Assembly: GCF_003334385.1 (NCBI RefSeq)
Contig: NZ_QOWN01000023.1
Reading direction: 5' to 3' (one strand)
Length of the DNA: 64,000 nt
Source of the DNA: Escherichia coli
GTDB taxonomy: Bacteria; Pseudomonadota; Gammaproteobacteria; Enterobacterales; Enterobacteriaceae
Shown: positions 41,664 to 62,658 of the stretch, piece by piece
Layout of the letters: each line of letters begins with the position of its first letter
Numbering within the stretch: the first letter of the stretch is position 1
Notes under the pieces: generated by a model
The model's database searches: none
Told to the model about the DNA's origin: nothing
Seen by the model: the letters and a program-made list of their open reading frames with translations, nothing else
Made by a program: the position numbers and the translations under genes

Positions 41664-43276
<1,613 letters not shown>

Positions 43277-43358
43277 TTATTCAGTCGATAGTAACCCGCC
43301 CTTCGGGGATAGCAAGCATTTTTTGCAAAAAGGGGTAGATGCAATCGGTTACGCTCTG

Positions 43359-43364
43359 TATAAT
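43359..43364 (+). promoter_or_regulatory. Candidate guaB promoter -10 (TATAAT) followed by GC-rich discriminator GCCGCGG
   Basis: Perfect TATAAT 44 bp upstream of guaB ATG; upstream GCAATCGGTTACGC (43341-43354) resembles a PurR half-operator (about 10 of 14). Confidence 0.45.
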
Positions 43365-43407
43365 GCCGCGGCAATATTTATTAACCACTCTGGTCGAGAT
43401 ATTGCCC

Positions 43408-44874
43408 ATGCTACGTATCGCTAAAGAAGCTCTGACGTTTGACGACGTTCTCCTCGTTCCTGCTCACTCTACCGTTCTGCCGAATACTGCTGACCTCAGC
43501 ACCCAGCTGACGAAAACTATTCGTCTGAATATCCCTATGCTTTCCGCAGCAATGGATACCGTAACGGAAGCGCGCCTGGCTATTGCTCTGGCTCAGGAAG
43601 GCGGTATCGGCTTTATCCACAAAAACATGTCCATTGAACGCCAGGCAGAAGAAGTTCGCCGTGTGAAAAAACACGAATCTGGTGTGGTGACTGATCCGCA
43701 GACTGTTCTGCCAACCACGACGCTGCGCGAAGTGAAAGAACTGACCGAGCGTAACGGTTTTGCGGGCTATCCGGTCGTTACCGAAGAAAACGAACTGGTG
43801 GGTATTATCACCGGTCGTGACGTGCGTTTTGTTACCGACCTGAACCAGCCGGTTAGCGTTTACATGACGCCGAAAGAGCGTCTGGTCACCGTGCGTGAAG
43901 GTGAAGCCCGTGAAGTGGTGCTGGCAAAAATGCACGAAAAACGCGTTGAAAAAGCGCTGGTGGTTGATGACGAATTCCACCTGATCGGCATGATCACCGT
44001 GAAAGACTTCCAGAAAGCGGAACGTAAACCGAACGCCTGTAAAGACGAGCAAGGCCGTCTGCGTGTTGGTGCAGCGGTTGGCGCAGGTGCGGGTAACGAA
44101 GAGCGTGTTGACGCGCTGGTTGCCGCAGGCGTTGACGTTCTGCTGATCGACTCCTCCCACGGTCACTCAGAAGGTGTACTGCAACGTATCCGTGAAACCC
44201 GTGCTAAATATCCGGATCTGCAAATTATCGGCGGCAACGTGGCAACAGCTGCAGGTGCACGCGCTCTGGCAGAAGCTGGTTGCAGTGCGGTTAAAGTCGG
44301 CATTGGCCCTGGCTCTATCTGTACAACTCGTATCGTGACTGGCGTCGGTGTTCCGCAGATTACCGCTGTTGCTGACGCAGTAGAAGCCCTGGAAGGCACC
44401 GGTATTCCGGTTATCGCTGATGGCGGTATTCGCTTCTCCGGCGACATCGCCAAAGCTATCGCCGCTGGCGCAAGCGCGGTGATGGTAGGTTCCATGCTGG
44501 CGGGTACTGAAGAATCTCCGGGTGAAATCGAACTCTACCAGGGCCGTTCTTACAAATCTTACCGTGGTATGGGTTCCCTGGGCGCGATGTCCAAAGGTTC
44601 CTCTGACCGTTATTTCCAGAGCGATAACGCTGCCGACAAACTGGTGCCGGAAGGTATCGAAGGTCGCGTAGCCTATAAAGGTCGCCTGAAAGAGATCATT
44701 CACCAGCAGATGGGCGGCCTGCGCTCCTGTATGGGTCTGACCGGCTGTGGTACTATCGACGAACTGCGTACTAAAGCGGAGTTTGTACGTATCAGCGGTG
44801 CGGGCATTCAGGAAAGCCACGTTCACGACGTGACCATTACTAAAGAGTCCCCGAACTACCGTCTGGGCTCCTGA
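43408..44874 (+). CDS. guaB: IMP dehydrogenase
   Basis: Catalytic-cysteine loop [11 protein letters not shown]; CBS pair; 488 aa from [16 protein letters not shown]. Confidence 0.96.
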
Positions 44875-56344: not shown

Positions 56345-56360
56345 AAGCAAACGTTTGCGA
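56345..56360. promoter_or_regulatory. PurR operator (pur box) upstream of purMN
   Basis: AAGCAAACGTTTGCGA with 12-bp palindromic core GCAAACGTTTGC, ~65 bp upstream of purM start. Confidence 0.7.
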
Positions 56361-57247: not shown

Positions 57248-57278
57248 AAAGCCGACTTTAAGAGTCGGCTTTTTTTTG
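57248..57278 (+). terminator. Intrinsic terminator/attenuator between upp and uraA
   Basis: Stem AGCCGACT/AGTCGGCT followed by TTTTTTT. Confidence 0.7.
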
Positions 57279-57317
57279 AGTAAAGCGCCTATAACACATA
57301 ATACAGAGGATAATACT

Positions 57318-58607
57318 ATGACGCGCCGTGCTATCGGGGTGAGTGAAAGACCGCCACTTTTACAGACAATCCCGCTTAGTTTGCAACATTTGTTCGCCAT
57401 GTTTGGTGCAACCGTCCTGGTGCCCGTCTTATTTCATATTAACCCGGCGACTGTACTGTTATTTAACGGTATTGGAACGCTGCTGTATCTCTTCATCTGT
57501 AAAGGGAAAATTCCGGCTTATCTTGGTTCCAGCTTTGCCTTTATTTCACCGGTATTGTTACTGTTGCCGTTAGGGTATGAAGTCGCGCTGGGCGGCTTTA
57601 TTATGTGCGGCGTGCTGTTCTGCCTGGTTTCTTTTATCGTGAAGAAAGCGGGGACCGGCTGGCTGGACGTGCTGTTTCCACCTGCGGCAATGGGCGCAAT
57701 CGTTGCCGTCATCGGTCTGGAGCTGGCGGGCGTAGCTGCCGGTATGGCGGGTTTACTCCCGGCTGAAGGGCAAACGCCAGACTCCAAAACCATCATCATC
57801 TCTATTACCACCCTGGCGGTCACGGTTTTAGGTTCCGTGCTGTTTCGTGGTTTCCTAGCAATTATCCCGATTTTAATTGGCGTGCTGGTGGGGTACGCGC
57901 TCTCTTTCGCAATGGGAATTGTCGATACCACGCCGATTATTAATGCTCACTGGTTTGCGCTGCCAACCCTCTATACGCCGCGCTTCGAGTGGTTTGCCAT
58001 TCTGACTATTCTGCCAGCGGCGTTAGTGGTTATTGCCGAACACGTAGGGCACCTGGTAGTAACGGCTAATATCGTCAAAAAAGATCTGCTGCGCGATCCA
58101 GGTCTGCACCGTTCGATGTTTGCTAATGGCTTGTCGACCGTGATTTCCGGCTTCTTTGGCTCTACGCCAAATACTACTTACGGAGAAAACATTGGCGTGA
58201 TGGCGATCACCCGTGTTTACAGTACCTGGGTTATCGGCGGGGCGGCGATTTTCGCTATCCTGCTTTCCTGCGTCGGTAAACTGGCTGCCGCTATCCAGAT
58301 GATCCCATTGCCGGTGATGGGCGGCGTTTCGCTGCTGCTTTATGGTGTCATCGGTGCTTCCGGTATTCGTGTTTTGATCGAATCGAAAGTGGATTACAAC
58401 AAAGCACAGAACCTGATCCTGACTTCCGTGATTTTGATCATCGGCGTCAGTGGCGCGAAGGTAAACATCGGCGCGGCGGAGTTAAAAGGTATGGCGCTGG
58501 CGACCATCGTCGGTATCGGCTTAAGTTTGATCTTCAAACTGATCAGTGTGCTGCGCCCTGAAGAAGTGGTGCTGGACGCAGAAGACGCGGATATAACAGA
58601 CAAATAA
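57318..58607 (+). CDS. uraA: Uracil:proton symporter (NCS2 family)
   Basis: 429 aa from [17 protein letters not shown]; multi-TM. Confidence 0.94.
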
Positions 58608-58656: not shown

Positions 58657-59403
58657 GTGGTAAACTTCTCGCGATTTTGTGAAATCCTGGTTGAGGTATC
58701 TCTGAACACACCGGCACAGCTCTCTTTGCCACTTTATCTTCCTGACGACGAAACCTTTGCAAGTTTCTGGCCGGGGGATAACTCCTCTTTACTGGCCGCG
58801 CTGCAAAACGTGCTGCGTCAGGAACATAGCGGTTACATCTATCTCTGGGCACGCGAAGGCGCGGGGCGCAGCCATCTGCTGCACGCGGCTTGCGCGGAAT
58901 TGTCGCAGCGTGGCGATGCGGTGGGCTATGTCCCGCTGGATAAACGCACCTGGTTTGTTCCGGAAGTGCTCGACGGTATGGAGCATTTGTCGCTGGTCTG
59001 TATCGACAACATTGAGTGTATTGCAGGCGATGAGTTGTGGGAGATGGCGATTTTCGATCTCTACAATCGAATTCTGGAATCGGGCAAAACACGGTTGTTG
59101 ATCACCGGCGATCGTCCACCGCGGCAGTTGAATCTGGGATTACCGGATCTCGCGTCGCGACTCGACTGGGGGCAGATCTACAAATTGCAGCCACTTTCTG
59201 ATGAAGATAAGTTGCAGGCGCTACAGTTACGCGCGCGTTTGCGTGGTTTTGAACTGCCGGAAGATGTGGGGCGTTTCTTGCTGAAGCGGCTCGACAGAGA
59301 AATGCGCACGCTATTTATGACGTTGGATCAGTTGGATCGTGCGTCGATTACCGCGCAACGTAAGCTGACCATTCCGTTTGTGAAAGAAATTCTGAAGTTG
59401 TAG
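58657..59403 (+). CDS. hda: DnaA-inactivating AAA+ protein Hda (likely true start at CTG 58702)
   Basis: AAA+ motifs (Walker A-like [10 protein letters not shown]; box VII); longest ORF from 58657, but from memory translation starts at a CUG 15 codons downstream. Confidence 0.88.
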
Positions 59404-61596: not shown

Positions 61597-62658
61597 ATGC
61601 TCGAAATGTTGATGCAATGGTATCGCCGCCGTTTTAGCGACCCGGAAGCGATTGCCTTGCTGGTTATTTTAGTTGCCGGATTTGGCATTATCTTTTTCTT
61701 TAGTGGCCTGCTTGCTCCGTTGCTGGTGGCTATTGTGCTGGCCTATTTGCTGGAATGGCCAACCGTGCGTCTGCAATCTATTGGCTGCTCCCGCCGCTGG
61801 GCGACGTCGATTGTATTGGTGGTTTTCGTCGGTATATTGCTACTGATGGCGTTCGTGGTACTGCCTATCGCCTGGCAACAGGGCATCTACTTAATCCGCG
61901 ATATGCCGGGGATGCTCAATAAGCTTTCTGACTTTGCCGCCACGTTGCCGCGCCGCTATCCGGCGTTAATGGACGCGGGCATTATTGATGCAATGGCCGA
62001 AAATATGCGCAGTCGGATGCTGACCATGGGCGATTCGGTGGTGAAAATTTCCCTCGCCTCGCTGGTCGGTTTGCTGACCATAGCCGTCTATCTGGTGCTG
62101 GTGCCATTGATGGTCTTCTTCCTGCTGAAAGACAAAGAGCAGATGCTGAACGCCGTTCGCCGGGTGCTGCCGCGTAACCGTGGGCTGGCAGGACAGGTGT
62201 GGAAGGAGATGAATCAACAAATCACCAACTATATCCGCGGCAAAGTGCTGGAGATGATCGTGGTGGGGATCGCCACCTGGCTGGGGTTCTTGCTCTTCGG
62301 GCTGAACTATTCGCTGCTGCTGGCAGTGCTGGTCGGCTTCTCGGTTCTTATTCCGTACATTGGCGCATTTGTGGTGACCATTCCGGTGGTTGGCGTGGCG
62401 CTATTCCAGTTTGGCGCAGGTACTGAATTCTGGAGCTGCTTCGCGGTGTATCTGATTATTCAGGCGCTGGACGGCAACCTGTTAGTGCCGGTGTTGTTCT
62501 CCGAAGCGGTTAACCTGCATCCGCTGGTGATTATTTTATCGGTGGTGATCTTCGGTGGTTTGTGGGGATTCTGGGGCGTATTCTTCGCCATTCCGTTGGC
62601 GACGCTGATCAAAGCCGTGATTCATGCCTGGCCCGATGGGCAAATCGCGCAAGAATAA
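61597..62658 (+). CDS. perM: AI-2E family (PerM-type) inner membrane transporter
   Basis: 353 aa, ~8 TM segments. Confidence 0.85.
   Translation: MLEMLMQWYRRRFSDPEAIALLVILVAGFGIIFFFSGLLAPLLVAIVLAYLLEWPTVRLQSIGCSRRWATSIVLVVFVGILLLMAFVVLPIAWQQGIYLIRDMPGMLNKLSDFAATLPRRYPALMDAGIIDAMAENMRSRMLTMGDSVVKISLASLVGLLTIAVYLVLVPLMVFFLLKDKEQMLNAVRRVLPRNRGLAGQVWKEMNQQITNYIRGKVLEMIVVGIATWLGFLLFGLNYSLLLAVLVGFSVLIPYIGAFVVTIPVVGVALFQFGAGTEFWSCFAVYLIIQALDGNLLVPVLFSEAVNLHPLVIILSVVIFGGLWGFWGVFFAIPLATLIKAVIHAWPDGQIAQE

Follow-up and report, generated by a model that had tools for sequence, protein, structure and literature searches.

We report that the DNA between positions 43312 and 43407 of the window, the 64,000-nucleotide stretch of Escherichia coli DNA analysed in this work, almost certainly comprises PguaB, the sigma-70 promoter of the guaBA operon, together with its leader, in a sequence identical to that found in K-12 MG1655, and that it carries a complete 16-bp PurR operator. 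The original prediction had proposed a guaB promoter with a G+C-rich discriminator and a partial match to a pur box, a possible PurR half-operator; the PurR site stands, with a ChIP-supported motif, and its description as partial does not. This DNA lies in the 161-bp xseA/guaB intergenic spacer of the E. coli chromosome, upstream of the operon for GMP synthesis, and comparison of positions 43078-43577 with K-12 MG1655 showed identity at 500 of 500 bases. A 351-bp query over the spacer, with xseA annotated on one side and guaB on the other, was matched once in each complete E. coli genome (5426 of 5426); this region showed 95-99% identity in 1,186 E. coli genomes, and its core of 111 bp was at least 99% identical in 5,423 of 5,424. 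PguaB is already known and is among the better-dissected promoters of E. coli, all of the predicted elements being found in the literature and in RegulonDB-type resources. No difference was seen from the K-12 promoter (Thomas & Drabble; Davies & Drabble, 1996; Hutchings & Drabble, 2000; Husnain & Thomas, 2008; Husnain, Busby & Thomas, 2009), with which it has in common the UP element, the weak -35, the TATAAT, the discriminator, the PurR and DnaA sites over the core, the FIS sites at -11, +8 and +29 and the CRP site at -117.5. Coordinates of all features are given in Table 1. The annotated start of guaB, placed by exact sequence mapping of the K-12 annotation, is the ATG at 43408. It should be noted that an open reading frame listed at 43339..44874 opens at an in-frame ATG at 43339, the first base of the full PurR operator; this ATG was rejected as the guaB start codon, as it lies upstream of the transcription start and of the annotated start.

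Table 1. Features of the xseA/guaB spacer and of the adjoining genes (positions in the window)
Feature	Position	Strand	Relative to guaB +1	Sequence and basis
xseA	41876-43246	minus		Open reading frame; NCBIfam xseA equivalog match far above cut-off
CRP-like site	43243..43264		centred -117.5	ACATGTGAGCGAGATCAAATTC; symmetric about 43253.5; overlaps xseA start codon
xseA transcription start	43281	minus		A
xseA -10	43293..43288	minus		TACTAT
xseA -35	43315..43310	minus		TTGCTA; 16-bp spacer
UP element of PguaB	43312..43333	plus	-59 to -38	GCAAGCATTTTTTGCAAAAAGG; A/T-rich tract
-35 element of PguaB	43336..43341	plus		TAGATG, weak; 3/6 against TTGACA; 17 bp from the -10
PurR operator (pur box)	43339..43354		-32 to -17	ATGCAATCGGTTACGC; complete, 16 bp; central CpG 43346-43347
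FIS site 1	43353-43367		centre -11	Footprinted in vitro (PMC2885671)
DnaA-box-like sequence	43355..43363	minus		TTATACAGA; 1 mismatch to TTWTNCACA; overlaps the -10; pattern scan
-10 hexamer of PguaB	43359..43364	plus	-12 to -7	TATAAT; 6/6 consensus; exact in 74/80 orthologs
Discriminator	43365..43370	plus	-6 to -1	GCCGCG; 6/6 G/C; C at second base past the -10 (43366)
guaB transcription start	43371	plus	+1	G; TSS-seq; alternative reported 5' end A at 43373
guaB leader, 37 nt	43371..43407	plus		Inverted repeat GCAAUAUUU (43371-43379) / AGAUAUUGC (43397-43405)
FIS site 2	43371-43385		centre +8	Footprinted in vitro (PMC2885671)
FIS site 3	43392-43406		centre +29	Footprinted in vitro (PMC2885671)
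guaB coding sequence	43408..44874	plus		IMP dehydrogenase, 488 aa; NCBIfam TIGR01302, 668 bits; K-12 annotation placed by exact sequence match
Perfect DnaA box	43613-43621			TTATCCACA; inside guaB; pattern scan
guaA	44943-46520			NCBIfam GMP synthase equivalog match far above cut-off

The position of the -10 hexamer was confirmed by direct reading and by string extraction, and string extraction likewise placed GCCGCGG at 43365-43371 and GCAATCGGTTACGC at 43341-43354, exactly where they had been predicted. The limits of the UP element, -59 to -38, are reportedly those of Husnain and Thomas in 2008 (J Bacteriol). For conservation we used an ortholog set obtained from a GuaB protein scan with one genome per species, giving 80 loci which were anchored on the -10 and which span Escherichia to Proteus, Photorhabdus and Plesiomonas, the Pasteurellaceae and one member of the Orbaceae. 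PguaB was not called in a consensus promoter scan because of its weak -35, of which the T at position -35 is nevertheless invariant across the 80 loci. According to the literature this weak -35 is compensated by the UP element, which strongly enhances PguaB and is bracketed by construct end points at -59 and -37 (PMC2885671); its A-tract is kept in the orthologs, with an A at -42 in 80 of 80 loci. RNA polymerase would be recruited by a perfect -10, a poor -35 and an UP element contacted by the alpha C-terminal domains, to start at G43371. TATAAT alone is not unusual in the window, where 13 copies on both strands compare with about 20-24 expected, whereas for TATAAT with six G/C bases directly after it the count is two where 0.37 would be expected, and each of the two immediately precedes a mapped 5' end, that of guaB in one case and of ndk in the other. 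The ndk promoter (32552-32565) resembles PguaB in that its upstream tract is A/T-rich, its -35 (TAGTCA) weak, its TATAAT perfect and its discriminator (CCGCGCC) all G/C, and in that it serves a gene for nucleotide (NTP) synthesis; it differs in having no pur box in the matrix scan and in its reported start, which is an A 8 nt past the -10. An extended -10 through the TG at 43357-58 was considered and rejected, as this TG directly abuts TATAAT and is hence not a canonical TGn; the DnaA-like box that overlaps it gives a better explanation.

Mapped 5' ends place the start of transcription downstream of the hexamer. In the TSS-seq data of Kim et al. (2012; PMC3415461, supplementary TSS table) the guaB start is at 2,632,129 of NC_000913.2 on the minus strand, supported by 1,497 reads and giving a 5'UTR of 37 nt; the promoter string given there ends ...TATAATGCCGCGG / ...GGTTACGCTCTGTATAATGCCGCGG, which sets +1 at 43371 of the window. 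This start lies 7 nt 3' of the hexamer, bearing out the claim of a guaB promoter, and is the last G of the predicted GCCGCGG discriminator; the first six bases of that heptamer are accordingly retained as discriminator and the seventh is the transcription start itself. A G is found at +1 in 78 of the 80 loci. The numbering of Husnain & Thomas (2008; PMC2885671), with CRP at -117.5 and FIS at -11, +8 and +29, is compatible only with +1 at 43371.

For the PurR site, for which a matrix scan had been proposed as the check, we built a log-odds matrix from 25 motifs under the ChIP-chip peaks of Cho et al. (2011; PMC3159470, Table 1), leaving out the three ChIP-listed sites located inside the window. 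With this leave-out matrix the 16-mer at 43339-43354 scores 14.9 bits (iid p = 3.4e-6), a score expected 0.44 times per 64 kb on both strands and 0.001 times in the intergenic spacer, and it is the third-best distinct site within the 64 kb. The operator of purMN (56345-56360) scores higher, at 17.4 bits, and the yfgO/yfgC site (61642-61657) lower, at 13.6 bits; purMN and the ChIP-supported yfgO/yfgC site serve as internal positive controls of the scan. Identity of the guaB operator is 13/16 with the ChIP consensus ACGNAAACGTTTGCNT, 13/16 with the purB operator and 11/16 with the ideal palindrome. Published ChIP-chip data demonstrate occupancy by PurR in vivo: the guaB-guaA peak at 2,632,091-2,632,533 is listed with the motif GCGTAACCGATTGCAT (PMC3159470, Table 1), which is the exact reverse complement of positions 43339-43354. 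Of all entries in the ChIP table guaBA has the lowest occupancy (log ratio 0.84), detected only when adenine had been added (PMC3159470), which is consistent with the modest matrix score and with a weak repressor site. According to PMC2885671, with reference to Meng et al. (1990) and Davies & Drabble (1996), the core promoter is overlapped by the PurR site and guaB is downregulated by PurR; repression dependent on purR and on a corepressor is stated there and in PMC12323610, with citation of Meng et al. (1990).

The guaB operator has in common with those of the pur regulon (purB, purMN, purF) that it is a 16-bp imperfect palindrome with a central CpG, situated between -35 and -10. It differs from them in its weaker match (14.9 versus 17-25 bits), in having the weakest ChIP enrichment and in its outer positions, which are GC…AT and not AC/AG…GT, all of which is consistent with modest repression. 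Since the 3' half of the -35 hexamer and the greater part of the spacer lie within the operator, competition with RNA polymerase by a hypoxanthine- or guanine-bound PurR dimer on the -35/spacer DNA would be the natural mechanism, one that is consistent with the report that 44% of PurR-regulated promoters have their motif between -35 and -10 (Cho et al., PMC3159470). With a below-average match and the lowest signal in the PurR table, PurR would act at PguaB as a weak feedback repressor.

Across the orthologous loci the best PurR-matrix site, of at least 10 bits, lies exactly 20 bp upstream of the -10 in 66 of 80. The lineages without a box are the Pasteurellaceae, Budvicia, Rosenbergiella, Arsenophonus and some endosymbionts, and these keep the -10 and the discriminator, which indicates that the operator is a separable element. 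Conservation of the operator columns correlates with the information in the PurR matrix (Spearman 0.54, p = 0.03): the informative positions are conserved, while the degenerate positions -31, -26, -23, -20 and -17 vary. Mean information, 0.37 bits upstream of the UP element, rises to 0.90 within that element, to 1.09 over the pur box and to 1.92 in the -10; it is 1.46 bits in the discriminator and 0.2-0.4 in the loop of the leader.

Two parts of this description, the operator and the exact start, could be read differently. The 16-mer might be conserved merely as the -35/spacer DNA of a strong promoter on which PurR has no action, and indeed it overlaps the -35 hexamer, has five mismatches to a perfect palindrome, scores 14.9 bits where the pur genes score 17-25, and gives the weakest ChIP signal in the table. 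Spacers, however, are normally without sequence conservation, whereas conservation here follows the PurR matrix; the central CpG is retained in 68-73 of the 80 loci, the box is lost in several lineages which keep the -10 and discriminator, a ChIP-chip peak is reported with exactly this motif (PMC3159470) and downregulation of guaB by PurR is stated in the literature (PMC2885671). We therefore regard such an interpretation as extremely improbable and retain the 16-mer as a PurR operator. As to the start, SMRT-Cappable-seq (PMC6131387 supplement) gives the 5' end of the guaB-guaA transcript as 2,634,105 of NC_000913.3, which by exact sequence mapping is A43373, 2 nt further downstream and 9 nt past the -10, and Mendoza-Vargas et al. 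(2009) reported one 454 read that would put the start at -17 from the ATG, for which a sigma-38 -10 was suggested. Were either of these the principal start the discriminator would be 8 bp long and the leader shorter. Against A43373 stand the 1,497 TSS-seq reads at G43371 and the classical footprint numbering, which fits 43371 alone; the start at -17 has a single read as its sole basis and is treated as minor. Searching the Illumina Cappable-seq supplements gave no match to the guaB coordinates. A principal start other than G43371 appears improbable, and G43371 is used as +1 throughout.

The role of the discriminator calls for a similar weighing. In the orthologs it reads GCCGCG at 36 loci and GCCACG at a further 30, together 66 of 80, with a C at -5 in 78 of 80 and at least five of six bases G/C in 71 of 80. 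Discriminators of this type are said, in the work of Travers in 1980 and of Haugen and coworkers in 2006 on rrnB P1, to make poor contact with sigma region 1.2, to form short-lived open complexes and to confer sensitivity to ppGpp/DksA and to the concentration of the initiating NTP. In the same 2006 work a base other than G (a C) on the non-template strand at the second position past the -10 is reportedly what makes the sigma region 1.2 contact suboptimal. By analogy the guaB discriminator, which has C and not G at this position, would make the same poor contact, form short-lived open complexes and be sensitive to ppGpp/DksA, and we infer a kinetic role for it at PguaB on these grounds. A part in stringent control is suggested by the title of the cited paper of Davies & Drabble (1996) together with general knowledge of rrn-type promoters. 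The literature found on guaB with ppGpp or a discriminator dealt with inhibition of the GuaB enzyme or with other organisms, and none of it with the promoter. The original prediction implied that the G+C-rich discriminator is the main determinant of growth-rate control of guaBA, as at the rrn P1 promoters; composition (6/6 G/C), the C at the second base past the -10 and conservation in 66-78 of 80 orthologs all speak for this, but growth-rate-dependent control at PguaB has been mapped experimentally to the UP element and sequences upstream (PMC2885671), so that it cannot be credited to the discriminator on sequence grounds alone. The resemblance to this class of promoter was a reasonable call; that the discriminator is the main determinant of growth-rate control is unlikely, the determinants having been mapped upstream. 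The upstream requirement is reported, in work of Husnain, Busby and Thomas from 2009, to be the CRP site at -117.5, and the discriminator may be necessary without being the mapped determinant. Growth-rate control through PguaB would additionally need the UP element and the upstream CRP site.

In comparison with rrnB P1-type promoters, PguaB has in common the A/T-rich UP element, the G+C-rich discriminator with C second past the -10, the presence of FIS sites and an activity which rises with growth rate. The differences are that PguaB has a perfect TATAAT and a 17-bp spacer (the spacer of rrnB P1 being 16 bp), that FIS binds downstream of or over its core and represses in vitro rather than activates, that its growth-rate control needs the upstream CRP site, and that it also has a metabolite-specific repressor site, that of PurR.

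Further regulatory sites crowd this short spacer. A DnaA site is known to overlap the core promoter (PMC2885671), and the DnaA-like box found by pattern matching may offer an explanation for the T at -14 and the G at -13, which are near-invariant across the 80 loci. With +1 at 43371 the FIS 15-mers all start with G and end with C, matching the critical-position pattern of PMC2885671; position -3 is G in site 3 and T in site 2, and site 1 mismatches at two critical positions. FIS represses PguaB 8- to 10-fold in vitro, direct repression in vivo not having been shown (PMC2885671). DnaA, from a box over the -10, and FIS, from its three sites, would act as further negative inputs. For the divergent xseA promoter, 895 reads mark a start at 2,632,219 (+) and the UTR is 35 nt long (Kim et al., 2012; PMC3415461), the SMRT-Cappable-seq 5' end being 43281/43282. 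The -35 of this promoter shares bases with the distal end of the guaB UP element, and 90 bp separate the xseA start from that of guaB. The minus-strand promoter TCGACT-16-TAGAAT (43288..43261) proposed by the consensus scan was rejected, since the mapped xseA start is at 43281 and its -10 is the TACTAT at 43293..43288.

The leader carries an inverted repeat. It opens with GCAAUAUUU and closes with AGAUAUUGCCC before the AUG, the arms being reverse complements of each other. Within it the repeat GCAAUAUU (+1 to +8) … AUAUUGC, the latter directly before the AUG, is invariant and apparently uncharacterised. The arms GCAATATT and ATATTGC never change among 54 distinct orthologous leaders (Enterobacterales, Pasteurellaceae and Orbaceae), while the loop differs freely in sequence and its length has a range of about 15 nt, for leaders of 34-49 nt. 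The predicted fold pairs +1 to +9 with +27 to +35, with a minimum free energy of -11 kcal/mol that is only mildly better than that of shuffled sequences (z = -1.9), and in such a hairpin the SD-like GAGA (43396-43399) and the bases between it and the AUG would be paired with the 5' end of the mRNA. Covariation was not detected: none of 13 pairs changes on both sides, six never vary, 91% of cells are paired and the shuffle control was not exceeded, a result which follows from the arms never varying. No Rfam family matches the leader, and in the open-access literature nothing was found on a leader hairpin in E. coli, the sole prior mention found being a computational "translational attenuator" entry at 2,632,084-2,632,140 in a RegulonDB-based supplement. 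The variable spacing of the arms speaks against one dimeric DNA-binding site. The arms fall at FIS sites 2 and 3, and these are too degenerate to explain the invariance. With a start at A43373 the stem would lose its two basal G-C pairs, and the exact start therefore matters for the hairpin idea. We consider it a doubtful though not negligible possibility that the repeat forms a 5'-terminal hairpin sequestering the Shine-Dalgarno region and so provides an uncharacterised post-transcriptional control of GMP synthesis. Through a hairpin of this kind the stability of the mRNA or its translation could, for example, be set according to a factor or to the guanine-nucleotide pool.

As a discovery this has small value, PguaB being already well studied and the inverted repeat of the leader being the only loose thread. 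Its interest lies rather in the fact that a reading of bare sequence was able to recover correctly a real promoter, its discriminator and its repressor site, with the "half-operator" corrected to a full and ChIP-supported operator, and in the finding that the discriminator and the register of the operator are conserved across an entire bacterial order, of which the literature cited here holds no such tabulation. If the leader hairpin is true it would help to explain the guanine-specific regulation of gua, which is weakly accounted for by PurR, and if functional as RNA the repeat would add a post-transcriptional layer to the control of GTP synthesis.

The 5' end of the guaB transcript has been placed at G43371 by TSS-seq (Kim et al., 2012; PMC3415461) and at A43373 by SMRT-Cappable-seq (PMC6131387, supplement), i.e., at positions 2 nt apart in two published genome-wide data sets. 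In the same SMRT-Cappable-seq data the ndk transcript also starts with an A (A32565), 8 nt past the ndk -10. The layout of the ndk promoter is like that of guaB: it has an A/T-rich tract (TTTTATTTTAAAAAAA), its -35 (TAGTCA) is weak, its -10 at 32552-57 is a perfect TATAAT, and its discriminator, CCGCGCC, consists of G and C only. Apart from these two promoters, the 64-kb window has no site at which six G/C bases directly follow a TATAAT.

The promoters of xseA and guaB are arranged back-to-back, with the distal part of the guaB UP element sharing bases with the xseA -35, and the xseA start codon is covered by a CRP-like site (43243-43264). A minus-strand consensus-scan call at 43288..43261 was rejected as the xseA promoter since it differs from the mapped one (43281-43315). 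A DnaA-box-like sequence and a perfect DnaA box were found at guaB; the former overlaps the -10, and this may be why T at -14 and G at -13 are invariant in the guaB promoter.

Features of the window
Feature	Position	Strand	Description
ndk promoter region	32498-32565		upstream of ndk (32614-33045)
xseA promoter	43281-43315	minus	-35 TTGCTA, -10 TACTAT; TSS mapped at 43281 (895 reads)
DnaA-box-like sequence	43355-43363	minus	TTATACAGA; 1 mismatch; overlaps guaB -10
Perfect DnaA box	43613-43621		TTATCCACA; inside guaB, 243 nt into the transcript
Top PurR-matrix match of the window (not guaB)	57694-57709	minus	ACGGCAACGATTGCGC; 17.7 bits; inside ORF 57276-58607
Second intragenic PurR-matrix match	59229-59244		ACGCGCGCGTTTGCGT; 13.4 bits; inside ORF 58657-59403

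A minor TSS supported by 40 reads was reported inside guaB, 180 nt upstream of guaA (44943) (Kim et al., 2012), and the SMRT-Cappable-seq data contain a start for b2507 at 2,632,715 (NC_000913.3) that is labelled "novel." Taken together, these two records suggest a weak transcript carrying guaA only.

The guaB leader (43371-43407) contains a perfect inverted repeat, one arm of which, GCAATATT(T), spans +1 to +9 while the other, (A)ATATTGC, lies shortly before the ATG. Both arms are without change in 54 distinct orthologous guaB leaders, and the loop differs in length and sequence; no covariation was found. In the predicted fold an SD-like GAGA lies within the 5'-terminal hairpin. A search of Rfam with the leader returned no family, and the sole earlier mention found of it is a database prediction of a "translational attenuator."

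The ORFs which contain the two intragenic PurR-matrix matches are presumably uraA (57276-58607) and hda (58657-59403), names that we took from gene order. Neither match is present in the PurR ChIP-chip table (PMC3159470), and both are therefore probably non-functional.

In the guaB upstream regions of three Rodentibacter loci (Pasteurellaceae; L073, L075, and L077), positions -32 to -17 hold no pur box. These loci instead carry a PurR-like site of up to 16.8 bits (ACGAAAACGTTTGCTG) which begins some 121 nt before the ATG and is located upstream of the core promoter. The TATAAT, the G+C-rich discriminator and the leader arms are all retained in these three loci.
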